From: Porphyridium purpureum
Taxonomy: Eukaryota
Assembly (NCBI GenBank): GCA_008690995.1
Contig: VRMN01000015.1
Span: 124,001-188,000, forward strand
DNA length: 64,000 bases
Reading direction: 5' to 3'
Below the pieces are notes generated by a model. It was given only the letters and a program-made list of their open reading frames with translations. It did no database searches and was not told the origin of the DNA. Below are positions 4,347-64,000 of this stretch, piece by piece; positions within the stretch are counted from its first letter, which is position 1; each line of letters starts with the position of its first letter. Both the position numbers and the translations under genes were made by a program.

Positions 4347-4458
4347 CACACTCCCACATCCCGCATCCACACACACACACCCACCCACTTTTCTAACGCT
4401 CCCCAACCTCCCCGCCCCAAACCATTCGCCCACTTCCAACGTGCGGTTCACTTTTATT

Positions 4459-4506
4459 CGGCTTGTCGGCTTGTCGGCTTGTCGGCTTGTCGGCTTGTCG
4501 GTTTAC
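4459..4506. repeat. Octamer tandem repeat (CGGCTTGT)x5 plus CGGTTTAC upstream of CLC
   Basis: Read directly from the sequence. Confidence 0.9.
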
Positions 4507-6245
4507 CGTTCTTATAAACGGCGCGCCAGTTCACAAACCCTCATAATAACCGAGCCGGTTTTGGTATGCACCAACGCGCCCCAAAAAAACCCCAAACGGA
4601 GACCGGACTGTACTTGGAGGTACACGTTCATTTTGACACGCAAGCCATGTTGCAGACGTTGTCGCAGTCAAGTATGATGATGGATCAGGACGCGATAGAA
4701 GGTTTTGGTTTTGGCTCTGGCTCTGGCTCTGGCGCGCAGAGGCAGAGGCAGATTCAGAACCAGAATCGGTCGCGGCTTCGTAGTGCGTACGCGCCTTGAA
4801 GATAGGCACAGGTAAACACGCGGTTGGGCGCACGCGCGTATAAAGTGGCCGGTGCAGAACGTTGCGAAGCTGGCGAAGCATCTTTGATGGCTTGATTGAA
4901 CTCGAACATAGTTTTGAGATGGTCATGCTCTCTTGTATACCTTCCGCATTGGCGTCCTTCACAAGTCCTCGAGAGCAAGCTGCAACCGACAGGCAGGGCT
5001 TCGCATCCGCCAGCCACAGCTGCGCTCCGATTCCTACAGTAAGCGGGAGATCATTGAAAATTTAGTATTATCTCCGAGCTGTTTGACAACGAATCGCCGA
5101 CATTCTGTGTTGCTCGGCCCCTTCCCATTCGCCTTTCTGGCGGCACGCAGCAGCTCTGTTGCCGACCGCGAAACAACAGAGCCGGCACGAGCTCGTGAAG
5201 CTCCAGACCTCCCCCGAACGAGATGAGATTCTGAACTTGCCCCGCGAAAGCGATACACGCGCGCAGGGATAGCGGTGGGTCTCGAAAAGGACCATCTACA
5301 CGTCCTCGGAGCATTCTGAAGGGTTCACACTGGATGATGTTCACCCCGAGCCCTTCTGCGTCGGCGAAGGGCGCCTTTGCAACGCTGCCTCCGCGGCCCA
5401 ATGGCTCCAGCGCATCTGCGGTTCCGCGGCGCATGTTGCTGGCATCATGCACTTGCGCATCTGCGGCCACATGCACTCTCGCGTTCGAAATTCCGGGGAA
5501 TGACCGTTGCACGCTCTAGTCCATGCCCGCAAGACGCGCGCACAACCGCATTTGATGACTTCTCAGAGCGCTACAACGCAAACCTCCAGCTGCTGAAGTC
5601 CCGAGGCGTTTCTCTGGCACTCCCCGGCATGCAGTTTCAGTGATTGCGCGTCCGCGGGGAGATGGCCTCAGACCTTATTTTCAGTCGCGCCACTGACTTG
5701 ACACGCCGCTGCCACATTTCCACACGCCGACATTACGAGGAAAGCAACCGTGCATCAATACCCCGCGGGCCCAGAGACACGTACAGACCAGGGCCGCCGC
5801 AGACTGTGCGTTCATCTCATTTCTCACTGCGCGCGCAGTCCGCGCTCTCCCGACCTGCTTCACGTTCACGCCCAAGCGCCACACGTCTCCAACCCCCGCG
5901 ACCTCGCGGTGTGTACAGCTCCCACAGTACATTGACCCGACGCGGCAATGCAGCATCGCATCCGCATCCTGTCGCTCGACCGTACCGCGGTACAGTGCGC
6001 GGCGACGACGGAGGGCGGCGCGCGCGGGGGTGGGAAGAAGGGCCACGCGCAGTCTATAATGAAACGATGCGGTTTAATCGGAAACTCGCCGCAGCAGTAC
6101 TTGAACCAATACAAGCGCCTCGTTTTTACATGGTTTCGAAGGTTTGTGTGTGGGGTTTGAAGGGGGAAGGGGGAGAGAGAGAGAGAGAGGGAGGGAGAGA
6201 AGGGGACAAGTGTGTGTTTGGGTGTGGGTGTGTGTTGTGGGCAAG

Positions 6246-12311: not shown

Positions 12312-13144
12312 CTTGGTGTGTGGCGTCTCCTTACCTACGAGACTTGAATGATATCGGCACTCTAGCTCACTGCCTGCCCGCTCAACCTCACACCGCAACT
12401 TTATGTATCTAAAGCGTGCAGTGCGCTTCTTATACCGTCCAGAGAAGAGACGACAGACGCTCACAGCTGCCGCGTACCGAACCGTTTTCCCCCCTTGTTT
12501 CCGCACACCTCACAAACACACCCCCCTTCCTGCAGACGTGGCCATTACAAGGAAAGGGACACAGGACGTCACAACCGCGCTATATCGGCGCACGCGGCCA
12601 CGCCTTGCGCGGGCGCGCCAACAAATGCAGCGCGCGTTGCTACACAGCCGTTAAGCGCGTGTGCGCGCTCGTGCGATTCGGGCGATTTCCGCACCCGCGA
12701 GTTGGACGCGGAGCGTGGCGAACTCCGTTACGCGCGCTTCCCATCGCGCGAGCTGGTTGGAGGCGAGCCGGCGCGATTTCCAGCGCCGTTCGGTTTATCC
12801 GTCCGAGTCGCACACACACACACACACACACTCTCTCTCGCTCCTATCAAATCGCTATGCTTTTAACAAGGAAAAAGCAACACAGTTGTTCCGCCGACTT
12901 GCAAGTGTACTTATTTGTTTGTGCGTTCTTAATGAACAAGACACGCGGAACATGGTTTCCTGCCATAGACTATTATAGTCAAAAACACACACACGCACAC
13001 CACAAATGGTTTGCATTAAAATGCACGTTCGATCCAGAAGAACAGAAATGCTTCGTTCATCATGTTTTAGTTGACGCTTACAGAACACTCGAAAATCTGG
13101 ACTTGACCACTGTACTTATGCACTGTACATAATCACTGTGCATC

Positions 13145-13381
13145 CGTGGTTGAACCGTGTATACACCGCCCCACCGACCTGCTGTACCTTGTTGTCGTCG
13201 CCGTCATTTGCGCGTCTGCGAGGATATATAAGCGGCGAGGTAAGAGCGGCGCAGAGCGCGACCCGATCTGGGAAAGGGCAAGAGAGATGTTAGTGTGTTG
13301 GAGGTAAAGTTGGTCCTGTTTGCTTTGCTTCTCCCTCTCCACCGTAACAATACGGTACACACGTGGTAGTAGTATCATTGG
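13145..13381 (+). repeat. 5' LTR
   Basis: Matches 19319-19555 with no differences seen by eye. Contains the TATA-like GATATATAAG at about 13223. Confidence 0.95.
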
Positions 13382-13394
13382 GTTATGAGCCCAG
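13381..13394 (+). promoter_or_regulatory. Primer-binding site complementary to the anticodon arm of initiator tRNA-Met (half-tRNA priming)
   Basis: GGTTATGAGCCCAG directly after the LTR; reverse complement CTGGGCTCATAACC. Same type as the copia/Ty5 PBS. Confidence 0.8.
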
Positions 13395-13770
13395 CGCTCT
13401 AAGCGCTTTGGGGTAGGTGTAAGTTAAGACTGACCGTTGTTTTCCTCCCCTTTTCCCTTTCGTTCCCGATCTCGATTGTTCCCGCCGCAACCCCAGCGGC
13501 CGCGACCAAGAGCCGACGAAGAATACCGGCCAGCCGACGGACATCCCGGTCAAGATCTTCAGTAAGAGAACTCCCGAGCAGAGTATCCGTAGAAGTGCAC
13601 GCCAAAAGGCAGTGCCAAGAGAAGACCGCACGGGAGGAGTGTGAGCGAGAACGACACCGTCGGGTGCCTGGGATGGACCCGCGCGAAGGTATGGAGCAAG
13701 TGCCTCCACAACAATCCGCACAAGGTGCGAGCAACCTCGCCCGTGTGTGTCGAGTGAAAGGAAAGAGGCC

Positions 13771-13995
13771 ATGAAGGCCGAGTTGTTGCAGGAAATGGGT
13801 CCGCAGATCCATCGTCTGATGAAAGAACAAGAACAGCGCCTGGGCGCAGAATTTCAAGCTCAATTGGATGCGCGAGAGGCGCGATTCCAGAGCGAAATCG
13901 GTGGTTTGCGTGCCGCCTTGGCGACATGTGTCACAAACGGAGCTTTCTTCCTTACTTCTTCTTCTCTCCTCCTCTACCTCCTCTCTTCTTCCTAG
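13771..13995 (+). CDS. Short coiled-coil upstream ORF in the retroelement leader
   Basis: MKAELLQEMGPQIHRLMKEQEQRLGAEFQAQLDAREARFQSEIGGLRAAL. Overlaps the start of the long ORF, which is in the -1 frame. Confidence 0.4.
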   Translation: MKAELLQEMGPQIHRLMKEQEQRLGAEFQAQLDAREARFQSEIGGLRAALATCVTNGAFFLTSSSLLLYLLSSS

Positions 13996-14258
13996 CCTTT
14001 TTTCTTCGTTCGGCTGCCGCTCGCTCTGTTTTATACCCGCCTTCCGGCGCCGCAACGGCTTGCCCGGCGGGTTCAGCCCTCGGAATAACCCAATCCCGCG
14101 GCCCTCAACATAACTCAGCTGTACCACACGGTACACCCACAGCTGTACTTTCAGTACACTTAGGGACTGTACCTCTGCGTACTCGCTGTACTGAGACCTG
14201 CATCAGGTCGCTCGCGACACATGGAGAAAGTTCATCGTCGGCTACGCTTAGCGGCGTG

Positions 14259-17200
14259 ATGAAAAATGTCTCAGTATCGGCGCCGGCAATGCCAACATTG
14301 AAACCGGCACCGATGGTGCACTACGGTGGCGAGCGCACATTGTCTGCGCTGCTGAGATGGAAATTTGCCGCGCGTGACCGGGTCTACTTGCCTGCAAAAA
14401 CGGAATGGATGAACTCCGGGCGTCAGTGGACCTCTGCGCAAGAAGAGCAGGTAGTGTCGACGCTTGCAACCTATTTCATCAACGATGCGCAGTCATGGTT
14501 TGAGTCACTCGTCGTGCGGCCGGCATCTTTCCATGATCTCACGGGACTGGTAGAGGCGCGTTATGCGCCACACCAGACGGAGGCCAAAACGCGTATGGAA
14601 ATGCTTAAGTTAAGTCAGGGTCGCTCCTCTGTGCAGGACTACGAATCGCGCTTTCGTGCACTGGCGCTTAAATGCCCCAGTCTGTCCGATCAGGAAAGGC
14701 TGTTCTACTTTGAGAATGGTCTCGAAGAGCAGGTGAAAATGCAGGTCGCCCTGAAGGAGCCACAGATCTACGAGGAAGCGCTAAAGTATGCGGTATTGGC
14801 CGACGCGGTGATTCACCCGCAAACGAGTCGACCGCGAGGAATCTGGGGCGCAGCGCAGCAAGCGCAAGAAACGGCTCCGATGGAGTTGGGCACGGTTCGC
14901 GGTCACGGTAGTGGGGGCGGCAACAGCAGTCGGCGCGGTGGTAGTAATTTTACTGGACGCAGTCCGGTAAACTCTGCTACTCGTCGTCGCAGCCGGCGCT
15001 TTTCGAACACCTTCCGTGGCAGCTACGCTGCGAGCGGATCTAATGATGGCCCACGCGGTGAGTCACACACCGATTCGCGCGCACGTGCGCATACTAGCGT
15101 GCCGCGGGTTCCCGAACGCGAGCGATATAGCCGCGATAACGACGGGAGTCGAGGCGTGCTTTTCGGCAATGGACAAGGCGCGAGTCGACGGCGTGAAACC
15201 GAGCGAACGCGTGCGACCACGCGTGCAGAACTCCGCCATTATTGCTTTGAATGCGGTCATGATCAGCCGGTTAACCACCAATGTCAGCGTGACTCGCGCG
15301 AGGCGGATTTGGGCACCATCAACGTCATTCCGCAGGGCGCGGTACCTGAAACGTCAAAGTCGGAAGAACGGTCGGATTCCTGGTATGACGGCGTGGCGGA
15401 AGATTTCCGCGAAGAATCGGAAATGTATGATCAGATGACCGGAGACACAGGGCAAGACCGCTATGGCAGCGATCCCTGGGTGTGGAGTAGTGAGGATGAA
15501 GTCGAAGACTCTTCGCCGGCACGCCCCAGGGAAGAAGGGCCCGCGCTTGAGCCGTTGCTGACCAGGTTTCGTGCCAAGCCGAGTGCAACGGATCCTGCTG
15601 CAGAGCTGCTTACCGCATCGATTGGAGTCAGCCACGCTGGTCTCATCAAGATCGACGCGCGAGTAAACGGCATCGTGATCCCGGCTATCATGGATACAGG
15701 AGCGTCGCACACATTTTTGAGCGTGGCCGCATGTCGCGAAGCCAGTGTGGGAAAGCATGACTTGGTGCCCCGCACCGTGAGCCGTGTACGGCTAGCCGAT
15801 GGAAGTATGGCACCGACGCGTGGATGTGCAGTGGTGACGCTGGGAATGCATGGCCTGATCGAACGTAAGCATAATGTGGTTGTCTACGATGGACACCACC
15901 CGCTGGTGATAGGCCTCGATTGGATGAGGTCACGCAGCATGTGCCTTACGATTGATGGAGTACAGCTGAACACCGCCGTGGCGGCGCCAGATAAAACAAG
16001 CACTGGCATGAGCGCGGTGGCGCATGAAATACTCCACATGCCCACTCGTGAAGGCTGTCGGATATGCGCGCTGGCAAAAATCCGGAGGGCATCGGCCGTG
16101 CGACGCGTTGAGCGCGTGGGAAGTGTCGATGACGTGCCTCGCGAAAGGTGCGATGAAGAGGATCTACGTGCCCGTTTCAACGACCGTGTTTCAGTGGATC
16201 TCGTCGACCCGACCATTCCGGGTGTCAACGGAAACCGATATTTGCTGTCACACAGAGACATCGCCACGAACTGGTGGTCCTTCCAAGGCGTCTGCGATAA
16301 GTCGGCGGAGAGTGTCCTGGAAGCGTTCATGGAAATTCAGCGCGGAAGGGGCTGGCCGAGAGTTTTGCGGTGTGACGAGGGCAGCGAATTTAAAGGATCA
16401 TTTGAGGAGGCGTTGCACTCTCACCTTGTGCAAAAGGACGTAGGAGTTGCATATCGCGCAAATACGCATGCGTCCCACGAGCGGATGCATGCTGATGTGA
16501 ACGCCGGGGTTCGTGCCCTGCTTGTGCAAAGCGGTCTGCCGTACCGATGGTACGCATCTGCTGTCAAGTATTGGGTTTTGGCCAGAAACTTAACGTGGAA
16601 AGGCCGCACGTCGCGGCAGACGGCGTTCGAGAAGCGTTTTAAGCGTGAGTGGAAAAGAGAACTTCCCCCCTTCGGCGCTGGCGTCGTTGTGTATGACGAG
16701 TCGCACATGAAATTCGGTACTTCGGGCATCGTGGCAATCGTCGTAGGCTTCACCGTCCCGGATCCACTAGATGAGCGCGAGCATATCAATGTACTTGTCG
16801 TACCCAAGGATGATCTTCGTTTTGCTGCCGTGCGCAGAGTGAAAGAGTGGCGCATGCTGGATGGCATTTGGCCAGTGCGGGGCATGGGTTTGCGCGAAAG
16901 AGAAGCTGAGCTACACAACAACGACCCAAGTTTCCTGGAGCGTGTCAGTGTGCGTGATGAAGATCTGGAGTGGTGTTCTCGGTGCCGAAAAGTGTGTCGC
17001 GGTAACATAGACTGCGATAGATGCGTGTTCGGCACCGCGGCGCGTGCCGCACATTCAGCGAGTGCAGGGTGCGCAAGAGACCGGTGCGTGTGCCCGCGGA
17101 ATGCGGACGGCGAGCTACGTGAAGCAGTTGCGGTGCGTCAAGGTACATACAAACGCATGCAGTTACCGTGGTCCGAGGAAGAAGACGAGGCTCTTCTGCG

Positions 17201-19040
17201 CGCGATGCCGTCCGACGAGGAACATTCCGGACAAAAATGGAAGAAGATATTGAGAGCTCCGGCGTTCTTTATGCGCGGTAGAAAACCCGCGGCTGCAGCA
17301 GCGCGGCTGCGAGAATTGACTGCGGCGCAGGTCAATGTGACCGAGGTCGTGGACACGGGAAGCGTGTTGGAGACACAGAGCGGCATCACTGCGTTGCGCG
17401 CAGAGCTGCGCGCCCTCACGAGCGCGGGCGCGCTGCCTTTCGAGAAGACAGTGGAGCGGGCTGTGGCTGCCAGGACACCCGGCGCGCGTTTCGTCAAGCT
17501 GAAGCTCTTAATGAGCGTCAAAAATCGCGAGATGCCCCCGGAGTTCCACAAAGTAAAAGCCCGCATCGTGGCTCAAGGCTGTCATATCGAGGACTCGCGT
17601 GGCCATAGGGCTGTCGACGAAGGATTTGCCTTCGACAAGCCACCGGGTCTTGCGGCCATACGCGCGGCAATGTCGAGCGCGCTGTTGCGCTCCGGCTCCG
17701 ACGCAGACGGTGCATTCTTCGACATTGACTGCGCGTACACGAGCGCGAAGCTTGGCGGACCTCCCACGTTCGGTGTAGTTCGCGGGCTTCGGCGCTTTCT
17801 GCGTGGGTCGGTCAGTGGCGAAGAATGGCACAAGGTCGAGGGTCTCGAAGATCCCGTGGTGCCACTGCCGCGAGCCTTGTATGGGCTGCCGCGCGCTGGC
17901 AGCGACTTCGCGCACCACGCGCGCAAGTTGCTTTTGTCATGTGAATGGCGCGAGAGTCAAGCGGATTTGAATCAGTACATGAAACGCGGTGCGAGCGGGC
18001 GCACGGTAGTTTTGAGCATGTACGTCGACGACGGCGCATGTTTCGGTCACAAGAATGATGTCGCCGATGCTGTGAAGGAGTTTAGAAAGATTTTCAAAAT
18101 TACTCGCCCGGTCGAGTCGCTGTCAGAGAGCAGCAAGGAAAAGCCAATTCGTTTTCTGGGATCACACCTGTACAGCGATGGCGGTTACTGGGTTTTGGAT
18201 TCGTCGAGCTACGCTCAGCATATAGTTGAGTGCGCGCGCGATCGCATCACGCGCGAACGCTCCAATCCATTGTCAGAGCGCGTCGAGGCAAGTGGAGAGG
18301 CTCGTGGACAGATGTGTCCAGCGTGGGTTCAAGGATCACTCGGGCAGCTGCTTTGGCTCACCCGCACGGCGCGGCCAGATCTGGCCATGAGCGTCGCGCA
18401 TGTGGCAAGATTCGTGCACCGGTGGGACGATGCAGCAACGAAGGCGCTGTCAGAAATCCTTGGCTACCTGCGCAAGCACGTGGACGTGCGCCTGCAGTAC
18501 GAGATTCCGATAGTTTGCGGGCGCCCTGAAGTCGTCGTGTTCAGCGATGCAGACTTCGCCGTCGCTGGGTCTGTGAGCGGCGCGGCCGCGTTCTTCGGTG
18601 TTGGCAAGGTTCGGCACTTGGTCGATTGGGTAAGCCGCAAGCAGCGGCGCGTGTCGACGAGCACCGCAGAGGCAGAGCTGGTGGCCGCACACGGCGCGGC
18701 ACAAGGTTGCGTGTTCCCTTTGGGTACGCACCTCGAGGAAATGAGCTGCTCGTGGCCGCGGGTGCGGCTGTTCGTGGATAACGAGGCCGCGTTGCGCGCC
18801 ATAGCTCGCGGGCACAGCGATAAGCTGTCACACGTCTCCAAAATGCAGCACATCTCGATCCGGTGGTTGCACGAGACTGTCGCCGATGGAATTATTGAGA
18901 TGTGTCATGTCCCGACGCGAGCGAATCTGGCAGACGGGCTTACGAAGCCTTTGCCCACGGACAAGTTTCGCAGTCACGCTTTCGCGTGGGGTCTCTATTC
19001 GTTGACACTATCCACAGGTGCTGCACACTGTGGAAAATAG
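14259..19040 (+). CDS. Retrotransposon polyprotein: Gag - Zn knuckle - aspartic protease - integrase - Cys cluster/Myb - RT - RNase H
   Basis: Gag AQSWF...LSQGRSSVQDYESRF...FENGL and PMELG; CFECGH; protease IMDTGASHTF...IGLDW; integrase HEILH...CRIC, VSVD, RCDEGSEF, HER; RT LYGLPRAG and MYVDD; RNaseH FSDADFA, STAEAEL, ANLADGLTK. The frame is open from 13926; likely ATG 14259. Confidence 0.93.
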   Translation: MKNVSVSAPAMPTLKPAPMVHYGGERTLSALLRWKFAARDRVYLPAKTEWMNSGRQWTSAQEEQVVSTLATYFINDAQSWFESLVVRPASFHDLTGLVEARYAPHQTEAKTRMEMLKLSQGRSSVQDYESRFRALALKCPSLSDQERLFYFENGLEEQVKMQVALKEPQIYEEALKYAVLADAVIHPQTSRPRGIWGAAQQAQETAPMELGTVRGHGSGGGNSSRRGGSNFTGRSPVNSATRRRSRRFSNTFRGSYAASGSNDGPRGESHTDSRARAHTSVPRVPERERYSRDNDGSRGVLFGNGQGASRRRETERTRATTRAELRHYCFECGHDQPVNHQCQRDSREADLGTINVIPQGAVPETSKSEERSDSWYDGVAEDFREESEMYDQMTGDTGQDRYGSDPWVWSSEDEVEDSSPARPREEGPALEPLLTRFRAKPSATDPAAELLTASIGVSHAGLIKIDARVNGIVIPAIMDTGASHTFLSVAACREASVGKHDLVPRTVSRVRLADGSMAPTRGCAVVTLGMHGLIERKHNVVVYDGHHPLVIGLDWMRSRSMCLTIDGVQLNTAVAAPDKTSTGMSAVAHEILHMPTREGCRICALAKIRRASAVRRVERVGSVDDVPRERCDEEDLRARFNDRVSVDLVDPTIPGVNGNRYLLSHRDIATNWWSFQGVCDKSAESVLEAFMEIQRGRGWPRVLRCDEGSEFKGSFEEALHSHLVQKDVGVAYRANTHASHERMHADVNAGVRALLVQSGLPYRWYASAVKYWVLARNLTWKGRTSRQTAFEKRFKREWKRELPPFGAGVVVYDESHMKFGTSGIVAIVVGFTVPDPLDEREHINVLVVPKDDLRFAAVRRVKEWRMLDGIWPVRGMGLREREAELHNNDPSFLERVSVRDEDLEWCSRCRKVCRGNIDCDRCVFGTAARAAHSASAGCARDRCVCPRNADGELREAVAVRQGTYKRMQLPWSEEEDEALLRAMPSDEEHSGQKWKKILRAPAFFMRGRKPAAAAARLRELTAAQVNVTEVVDTGSVLETQSGITALRAELRALTSAGALPFEKTVERAVAARTPGARFVKLKLLMSVKNREMPPEFHKVKARIVAQGCHIEDSRGHRAVDEGFAFDKPPGLAAIRAAMSSALLRSGSDADGAFFDIDCAYTSAKLGGPPTFGVVRGLRRFLRGSVSGEEWHKVEGLEDPVVPLPRALYGLPRAGSDFAHHARKLLLSCEWRESQADLNQYMKRGASGRTVVLSMYVDDGACFGHKNDVADAVKEFRKIFKITRPVESLSESSKEKPIRFLGSHLYSDGGYWVLDSSSYAQHIVECARDRITRERSNPLSERVEASGEARGQMCPAWVQGSLGQLLWLTRTARPDLAMSVAHVARFVHRWDDAATKALSEILGYLRKHVDVRLQYEIPIVCGRPEVVVFSDADFAVAGSVSGAAAFFGVGKVRHLVDWVSRKQRRVSTSTAEAELVAAHGAAQGCVFPLGTHLEEMSCSWPRVRLFVDNEAALRAIARGHSDKLSHVSKMQHISIRWLHETVADGIIEMCHVPTRANLADGLTKPLPTDKFRSHAFAWGLYSLTLSTGAAHCGK

Positions 19041-19318
19041 TCACGGCTATTACCCCAGGTGCGAGTAAAATCAAAAAGAAAAAGGAAAAGAACAAGGAAG
19101 AAGAGGAAAAGAAATCTTTGGCGTGTGAACGTGGTTATGTTTTTCCGCGCACGTTCTGCTGGTGGTCACGCTGGCGCGCCGTGGTCGTGGCGTCCGGGTT
19201 AAGGATTGGTGAGACGCGCAAGGCGCGAAGGAAACATCAAATGAAAAATTGATCTGAATGATTGGCGGGTAGTTGCCCGGCGAGGCTGATTGCACGGCGG
19301 GTGTGGTGTTGGGGGGCG

Positions 19319-19555
19319 CGTGGTTGAACCGTGTATACACCGCCCCACCGACCTGCTGTACCTTGTTGTCGTCGCCGTCATTTGCGCGTCTGCGAGGATA
19401 TATAAGCGGCGAGGTAAGAGCGGCGCAGAGCGCGACCCGATCTGGGAAAGGGCAAGAGAGATGTTAGTGTGTTGGAGGTAAAGTTGGTCCTGTTTGCTTT
19501 GCTTCTCCCTCTCCACCGTAACAATACGGTACACACGTGGTAGTAGTATCATTGG
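19319..19555 (+). repeat. 3' LTR, preceded by a G-rich polypurine tract at 19311-19316
   Basis: Direct repeat of 13145-13381. Confidence 0.95.
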
Positions 19556-20021
19556 CGTCCGACGATTTTGTCGCTTGGGTTCGGAAATCTCGTTTTGTTC
19601 TGGAGCCCGCCCCGCTCGTCAAGAACAGAACGGCACGCGGTTGTCGCGCGAGCGGGAGACATAGCACTGGCGTACGTTCCCTGTCCGTAGCAGCTGTGGT
19701 CGCCGTGCGTGGCCTCGAGCGGCGTGATGTTGCGACGCGAGGTTTCTTACCGGCTTGCTCTTGGCGCTGTGGCCGACAGTCGTTGCGGCTAGAAAAGTCG
19801 CATCGCTTGGTCTGCCGCAGTTCTTAGCGGTTCCAAGGTGAACCGTTTGGCAGTTGACCGATTAGGCGGTTCGCGGTGCAGCTCAACTGTACCGCGTTGG
19901 CTTTCAGTGTACTTTGTGTACAGTTGATGTGGGTGGTGGTGCGCATGGACGCAGCAGCAGCAGCAGTAGCGCTGGGCAAGTGCGAGGTTGGCAGCAGCGG
20001 GCACACAGTTTGGCTGCGGCA

Positions 20022-62797: not shown

Positions 62798-63887
62798 CTT
62801 CTCCTTCTCTCCTCTTCCGTCCCTTCCGCCTCTCCTCTCTCTCCTACCTCCTCTCTCCCCCCCACAACCAACACCGAAAAACTTTATAGCGTCATCTTCG
62901 CCCCTACACAAAATCAGCGCCTTCTTCTCACACTCCCACCTGGCACGATCCTTTGCTCACCAAAATCACAAAACAACCCAGATTTACTAGGACAGCGCCC
63001 AGCCGGGTAGAGGAGGTACAGCCAAAATCCAACAGAGTACAGCGATGTACAGCGGCATGTACAGTCTTGTACAGTGAGGTGTACTGTGGGAATTGGCGCA
63101 CAATCGGTTCAGCTGGACGGTGGGCGTGCGAGCTGAAATCTGGCGCTGCGTGTTGATGCGCTACGCGGCAGCTGCACGCACGAAGGGGATTACGTCTCGT
63201 GTAGGATGTAGCACTTTTTCCCAGGCTGGCATGTGCTCCCGCGCGCACGACCACTGTGGTCGAGTGATCGGCGTCGAGCTTGATGTGCGGGGTATGTATG
63301 ACTATCGATGCGCGGCTTTGGGTTCAGTCAGGCGCCCGTCACGCTCTTTGATCGTGGCAGCGGCCAGCATTGGCACAGTTCTTGGCCAAGCTTCCTTGCG
63401 GGAGACCGGTCTTCGGGCAGCGGTTTTGCCGTGGAACAAGCCGCTGCTGTGCGCGCGCATTTCGCCACGCTGGCTGCACCGACGCCGACGCGACTGCGGC
63501 TGTTTCCTCGCGACCGCGCCATGCGTCATGAGCAAACCCGCGCGCGCGTGCCTCTGCATAGCCAGCGCCGCGTGCTGGCTCCATGCACCGCGTTCCTCAC
63601 TCATCCAGCAAGCCACAAACTGCGACGACGCCACGCCGTCTGATGGCAGACTTGGGATTCCGTGTTGACATTTGCATTCAGTAGCAGCAGGCGCTCGAGG
63701 GGTCATCGCGGGGTCATCGCAAGTCACGACGCACAAGCATCACGAAATCGGTGCGTTTTGATGGAGACGTGCGCTGTACCCAACACCACAACTGTACCTT
63801 CACCACCGATTTTTAGATGTTCGCGGGCCGGCGCGGTGGCACGTACAGTATACTGTACTTTCTAGGGTTTCGGTTTTGAGAGGATGA

Positions 63888-63913
63888 TTAGGGTTAGGGT
63901 TTAGGGTTTAGGG
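63888..63913 (+). repeat. Interstitial telomere-like tract TTAGGG-TTAGGG-TTTAGGG-TTTAGGG
   Basis: Read directly. An additional TAGGGTTT lies at 63863, and GGATTTTT repeats follow. Confidence 0.85.
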
Positions 63914-64000
63914 GGAAGTTTGGATTTTTGGATTTTTGGATTTTGGAGGCGGTGGCGGTGGCGATGCTGTCGGTAGCGGGGAAGGGCGAGTGGGAGAGAG

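Follow-up and report, generated by a model that had tools for sequence, protein, structure and literature searches.

A Myb domain in the integrase tail of a mosaic LTR retrotransposon of Porphyridium purpureum

Organisation and classification of the element

The 64-kb stretch of DNA analysed here (the window) contains an LTR retrotransposon of Porphyridium purpureum, which spans positions 13145–19554 and has a single 1760-codon open reading frame on the forward strand (13758–19040) encoding gag, protease (PR), integrase (INT), reverse transcriptase (RT) and RNase H (RH). Its features, in window coordinates, are the following.

13140–13144, + strand: target-site duplication, left copy; GCATC in the window, GCGTC in RNA reads (5 reads, agreement 0.75; loose end at 19319)
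13145–13380, + strand: 5' LTR of 236 bp, an identical repeat with ends 5'-CG...TG-3' instead of TG...CA; beyond the equivalent of 13380 the flanks of other copies differ
13381–13397, + strand: primer-binding site, from its sequence likely for a half-molecule of initiator Met tRNA
13929–14219, no strand assigned: nested repeat of ~291 bp with TG...CA ends within gag, likely the solo LTR of another family
14466–14726, + strand: Gag capsid of Ty3/Gypsy type (PF03732, E=4.8e-12; PF19259, E=5.8e-6)
15654–15923, + strand: aspartic protease, gypsy-type model (PF13650, E=7.1e-7)
16023–16560, + strand: integrase with a compact HHCC finger and a DDE core (D at 16197, D at 16374, E at 16479; rve PF00665, E=6e-8 in the relative P0003)
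16650–16862, + strand: C-terminal SH3-like barrel of the integrase (AF2 pLDDT 78–95; SH3/Tudor matches with Z up to 6.5; PF25597 in 12 of 26 aligned members)
16974–17093, + strand: C4-H-C3 cluster, a predicted two-zinc finger of no known family, with no Pfam match
17157–17330, + strand: Myb domain of TRF/telobox ancestry with an altered recognition helix, from profiles, an AF2 model and a helix-3 comparison
17337–19040, + strand: Copia-type RT and RNase H (YVDD at 18021, ADGLTK at 18930, stop at 19040; PF07727, E=2.1e-5, under its cut-off)
19311–19318, + strand: short, G-rich polypurine tract adjoining the 3' LTR, its role assigned by position
19319–19554, + strand: 3' LTR, same sequence as the 5' LTR
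19555–19559, + strand: target-site duplication, right copy, GCGTC

The two ends of the element share a direct repeat of 237 nt with 100% identity, of which 236 bp were assigned to the LTR, as in two runs other copies no longer agree with the window beyond 19554, and 19319 is a break point of contigs as well as reads. Judged by its identical LTRs, the element appears to be young. The 5-bp duplication has one mismatch between its copies in the window and none in the RNA reads. The sequence at 13381–13397 is a putative match to the anticodon arm of the initiator Met tRNA; ARAGORN predicted no tRNA genes in the window, and no Rfam families were detected over 12800–20000. Priming by half-molecules of tRNA-Met is reported for the Copia lineages Osser, Bryco and part of Gymco-II in the accessible text of PMC6317226.

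The nested repeat interrupts the gag frame of the window copy, and one run's contig skips 293 bp at this place (from 13920 to 14214), with loose ends at 13929 and 14219; in another copy (P0012) the gag frame reads through without this interruption. The repeat has CATG on either side and several CTGTAC words inside, and its family is represented by abundant RNA reads, mostly of the opposite strand, with a depth of up to about 1700 in run X22. Small indels relative to most reads (two surplus bases at 13743 and the lack of one at 13945) may be either assembly errors or copy-specific changes. RNA coverage of the Myb region is low and was found in two of the three runs of one study (about 4–5 in X22, 0.6 in X23 and 0 in X21), with reads mostly in the sense direction if the library is of the usual stranded kind. 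The HHCC finger of the integrase (16023–16067) is very compact, H-x3-H-x6-C-x2-C, with a spacing common to eight aligned relatives, of which P0004 starts after the first His.

The initial annotation called this a Copia-type element, and that label holds for the domain order and the type of RT but not for the gag and protease. The pol order is PR-INT-RT-RH, the LTRs are direct repeats flanked by a target-site duplication, and the match to the Copia-type RT model (RVT_2, PF07727), while under the cut-off in the window copy, passes it in the close relatives P0004, P0006 and P0034. In contrast, gag and protease match Ty3/Gypsy-type models (PF03732, PF19259, PF13650 and PF13975), and the termini are CG...TG, backed by the flanks of other copies, so that the integrase would need to join non-CA ends. 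This combination of a Ty3-type gag and protease (14466–15923) with a pol of Copia order and Copia-type RT (16023–19040) is also found in P0183, which lacks the Myb domain, and the mosaic is therefore older than the Myb. Together with the CG...TG ends, the Ty3-type gag and protease on a Copia-type INT-RT-RH add to the case for an unclassified lineage. Mosaic Copia/Gypsy organisation has been described elsewhere: PyRE10G of Porphyra yezoensis is likewise red-algal and mosaic, but has a gypsy-like integrase according to the title of its description, where the Porphyridium element combines a Ty3-type gag and protease with a Copia-type RT, while the Gmr1 elements have a Gypsy RT in Copia order; both are set apart by their descriptions.

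The Cys/His cluster and the Myb domain of the integrase tail

The peptide that had drawn attention to this locus is encoded exactly and in frame (WCSRC from 16971, LPWSEEE from 17163, ARLREL from 17301), and both the Cys/His cluster and the Myb domain lie between the integrase core and the RT (VTEVV at 17337), as the initial annotation had it, and past the SH3-like barrel. It is this position between barrel and RT that places the Myb domain at the integrase C-terminus, with a putative protease cut site after it.

The cluster follows directly after the SH3-like barrel with the spacing C-x2-C-x7-C-x2-C-x10-H-x5-C-x4-C-x-C. The more general pattern C-x2-C...C-x2-C...H...C-x4-C-x-C/H was found in 20/37 element-like proteins, a biased count and not a true frequency, as the search profile included the cluster. 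It is also present in distant elements with a Copia-type RT and in 10 of the 12 tree rows outside the Myb clade described below. Both modules are complete only in P0002 and P0003, and partial clusters occur in P0036 and P0040. The view that the cluster and the Myb form a single module was thus not borne out, as they have been gained and lost independently of each other; the putative zinc cluster is an older, separable and wider-spread part of the integrase tail. Its eight conserved Cys and His residues suggest that two zinc ions are bound. Pfam gave no match under E=0.06 for the cluster region in 26 members, and the comparison with PHD and ZZ folds is a slight one, the fold searches having barely covered this region; its ligand order also differs from the ZZ finger pattern. 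The C4-H-C3 cluster marks a wide and apparently undescribed group of Copia-order integrases.

For the Myb domain the single-sequence Pfam match is weak (PF00249, E=0.0083, 16.7 bits vs a cut-off of 24.4), and the sister protein P0034 reaches 24.3 bits against the same cut-off. A profile of nine other element Mybs, built without the window family and its closest sister, scored the window Myb at 15.4 bits, and as the best of 2000 shuffled sequences reached 8.7 bits the match is more than chance. The first homologue search gave nine proteins, namely the window's own (100% identical over the searched region), five at 37–46% identity, one at 40% and two distant ones. The integrase-tail profile made from eight proteins of this search matched 11 PDB sequences, 10 of them Myb proteins aligned over the window's Myb segment, with TBF1 the best (E=0.00097). 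The PDB match to RSC8 (E=1.1e-5) was discounted, as it sums two copies of one stretch, each with E=0.46. When 1.84 billion proteins were searched with the profile there were 233 matches at E<=0.001, and the best 150 of these consisted of three inputs, 29 element-like proteins and 118 non-element proteins aligned at the Myb positions, none of the 118 having an RT or integrase. Word-based searches for homologues, with alignments, yielded nothing further.

The AF2 model based on 26 sequences (pLDDT 72) has the SH3-like barrel followed by three C-terminal helices (residues 176–185, 195–202 and 213–226), and its residues 170–227 superimpose on the DNA-binding domain of hTRF1 with Z 5.9 and an rmsd of 2.0 over 48/52 residues, a middling Z-score tied with those of Zeste, GT-1, TBF1, Rap1 and homeodomains. 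Foldseek with this alignment-based model returned nothing at E<=0.001, the ESM Atlas gave no usable match for residues 935–1075 of P0002, and the single-sequence AF2 model was poor (pLDDT 42) and was kept out of the fold search. Of the core Trp residues W1 and W2 are kept, while the third position is Ala, Thr or Leu in all 11 element Mybs. With both the Myb profile matches and the TRF1-like three helices, on which the first reading had staked its claim, the observation of a Myb domain in the integrase tail is confirmed.

Such an architecture was said not to be known from Copia-type elements, and literature searches agree with this: among the openly accessible titles and abstracts that they covered, none describes an LTR integrase with a Myb domain, and the main texts of PMC6317226, PMC5445492 and PMC2836005 do not contain the word "Myb". 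The closest arrangements, as far as the accessible text of PMC2774666 describes them, are the diatom Ty1/Copia elements CoDi-A, which are of Copia order and carry a chromodomain on the integrase, and the Ty3/Gypsy chromoviruses, all with a host-derived chromatin-type domain at the integrase C-terminus. The Porphyridium element differs from these in having a Myb domain after a novel Cys/His cluster, and a Ty3-type gag and protease; Pfam detected no chromodomain in the window protein or in the 26 aligned members.

Distribution and ancestry of the Myb domain

Eleven distinct versions of the element Myb were found, all carriers being from the single species P. purpureum. In a tree built from RT and RH (23 rows), the nine Myb carriers with an RT fall within one clade of 11 (support 100/99), and the Myb is absent from all 12 rows outside it; P0038 and P0096 were left out as they have no RT, and the tree is rooted on one distant row and has several long branches outside the Myb clade. 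The expectation that the domain would be conserved among relatives is thus borne out, with P0004 and P0006 the two clade members lacking it, and one capture followed by one loss would be the simplest reading. The P0046/P0183 family of the same species is without Myb. The exact LTR pattern had no matches in metagenome contigs, and a protein-guided scan gave three loci, all distant RT matches, of which L001 starts inside the RT, short of the integrase tail.

The Myb has been retained across families with RTs about 44–53% identical to that of the window element, while the linkers around it vary between families in both length and sequence. Between the window element and P0003 identity is 48% in the Myb and 19–20% in the linkers on either side; against P0005, P0007 and P0008 the Myb is only 17–25% identical, vs 44–48% for the RT. 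The window copy and one run's contig differ at three positions of the Myb, two of them amino-acid-changing, which is too few to weigh.

With regard to its origin, the host proteins closest to the element-Myb profile, among the matches listed, resemble telobox proteins in their helix 3 and their long loop; the telobox-type helix-3 pattern is found in 64/118 host matches (among the best 150 of 233), and one of the top host matches, P0108, maps to TRF structures. The proposed TRF/telobox-type ancestry is in agreement with this, and the Myb was likely captured once from a host protein of this type. The element Mybs share with TRF1, TRF2, TBF1 and the plant TRFL proteins the three-helix fold and the long loop preceding helix 3, and have their best host sequence matches among proteins of this kind, but are single-copy domains fused to an integrase, and differ from them in the recognition helix. 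TRF1 recognises its repeat through R380, V418, K421, D422 and R425, and in simulations its D422A variant still binds DNA strongly with discrimination lost, according to the accessible text of PMC5737604. In the element Mybs the equivalents of D422 and W424 are missing in 11/11 and that of R425 in 10/11, the window copy alone having Arg there, so that none has the telobox combination of K421, D422 and R425. The K421 position is Arg in 10/11, with Ala in the window copy alone, which accordingly reads Ala, Ala and Arg at the K421, D422 and R425 positions. K+R is at least equal to D+E in 10/11, and W1, W2 and the helix-3 Arg are conserved among the element Mybs. From these residues the element Mybs look like DNA binders without telomeric specificity. 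The recognition helix had been described as degenerate, and indeed helix 3 of the window copy is mostly Ala and the most eroded of the 11 versions, making it likely that the grip of the window family on DNA would be weak or partly non-specific.

The target site and possible roles of the Myb domain

The insertion site is non-coding, and host DNA to the left of the target site contains two copies of the word ACTGTAC.

13109–13115, + strand: ACTGTAC
13122–13128, + strand: ACTGTAC, the nearer copy, 12 bp from the target site

No 7-mer of the window is more strongly enriched than ACTGTAC, with 25 copies vs a shuffle mean of 3.1, and 19/24 host copies are non-coding, making it a candidate Porphyridium promoter element. 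Of non-coding positions, 3.1% lie within 15 bp of an ACTGTAC, a figure which concerns one insertion site and a word picked post hoc. The word is absent from the 3' flanks of two other copies (each 30 nt long, one of them a mixed consensus of 0.58), which fits either a rule on the 5' side or no rule at all.

The reading we prefer, and to which we give even chances, is that the captured Myb anchors the intasome at promoter or intergenic DNA and not at telomeric repeats. The protease would cut between Myb and RT, a step suggested by the positions of the domains, and the Myb would stay on the integrase; its basic N-terminal arm and helix 3 would make the contacts to target DNA, with a specificity that is relaxed or changed, and the integrase would insert roughly one helical turn away from where the complex is docked (12 bp from ACTGTAC at the site seen here), leaving the 5-bp duplication. 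In a gene-dense genome, avoiding coding DNA would pay. This tether is supported by the Arg at the K421 position in 10/11 versions, the basic or neutral charge, the D422A precedent and the non-coding site near ACTGTAC, although selection after insertion can also yield an intergenic position. Counted against it are the Ala residues at the K421 and D422 positions of the window copy, the missing Myb in 2/11 clade members, the low Myb identity to P0005, P0007 and P0008, the middling and tied fold Z-scores, the restriction to one species and the single full target site. The earlier interpretation is therefore partly supported: the architecture is solid, and the targeting function is one that we infer.

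That interpretation suggested that the Myb may tether integration to teloboxes or chromatin, and a domain which still reads TTAGGG or TTTAGGG and steers insertion to such sites could draw on the TRF/telobox ancestry, with its 64 host matches of telobox-type helix 3 among those listed, and on the enrichment of teloboxes in the window. We consider it very improbable, as the D422 equivalent is lost throughout and that of R425 in all versions but one, and at the one full site no TAGGGTT lies closer to the insertion than 2369 bp and no TTAGGG closer than 4276 bp; telomeric-type repeats are also absent from the two other 3' flanks of 30 nt each. An indirect form of targeting, in which the Myb binds a host factor sited at promoters, such as a reader of ACTGTAC, or histone tails in the manner of a SANT domain, would suit the window helix 3, mostly Ala and without K421 and D422 equivalents, and the loss of the third Trp in 11/11, and RSC8 (the weak PDB match with domain E=0.46) has a similar arrangement, with a zinc finger ahead of Myb/SANT. 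Ty5 and Sir4 provide an example of tethering by a host factor. In the accessible text of a review of plant element targeting, which mentions chromodomains and H2A.Z, this is the usual route of LTR elements (PMC12477314). Yet the nearest host relatives are DNA binders of TRF type, the domains are basic or neutral rather than acidic in 10/11, and the ligand order of the cluster is unlike that of ZZ fingers. We regard this option as unlikely, and for the family as a whole the Arg at the K421 position and the charge balance, both in 10/11, do not favour the suggested change to the binding of protein or histones; in the window copy it may have occurred.

A role on the element's own DNA, with the Myb gripping the non-canonical LTR ends during intasome assembly rather than choosing a target, would fit both the CG...TG ends, which imply an unusual end recognition, and the CTGTAC within the LTR at 13182, but known domains appended at the same position of the integrase act on the target, and we hold such a role to be distinctly unlikely. 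The Myb could also be a captured passenger which is decaying in a tolerant linker and has no current role, at least in the window family. Its loss in P0004 and P0006, the eroded helix 3 of the window copy and the Pfam scores under the cut-off are what decay would produce, but 9/11 clade members have kept the domain through a deep divergence of their RTs and with changing linkers on either side, and W1, W2 and the helix-3 Arg are conserved, which makes a mere passenger quite improbable.

A stronger form of the promoter or intergenic tether would be that the integrase reads DNA directly through a re-specified telobox Myb and inserts at a constant spacing from a promoter word, for which ACTGTAC is the candidate, with families differing in their recognition helices; this we put forward tentatively, as a rather doubtful possibility. 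The targeting of LTR elements is known mostly through chromatin marks or host proteins, and a DNA-binding domain of transcription-factor type fused to an integrase would be a third route. If true, the element would be the LTR counterpart of the ZnF-Myb system of R2, and a natural, modular, sequence-guided integrase. The finger of R2, a non-LTR element, is of the C2H2 type. Common to R2, as described in the accessible text of PMC12222951, and the Porphyridium element is a zinc finger beside a Myb in a retroelement enzyme, but R2 uses target-primed reverse transcription and an N-terminal module reading a motif at a set distance, with the Myb motif 22–34 bp upstream of the cut, whereas the Porphyridium module is at the C-terminus of a DDE integrase, and its reading of sequence is only a candidate function. 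A single genome with 11 Myb versions and Myb-less control families would allow direct testing by domain swaps and insertion-site mapping.

Elsewhere in the window, ACTGTAC words are often clustered, and near 63780–63915 they lie beside telobox-like TAGGGTT repeats. The window also has 8-bp units repeated in tandem, in a long array from 49458 to ~49900 and in shorter related ones at 1357–1425 and 4443–4519.
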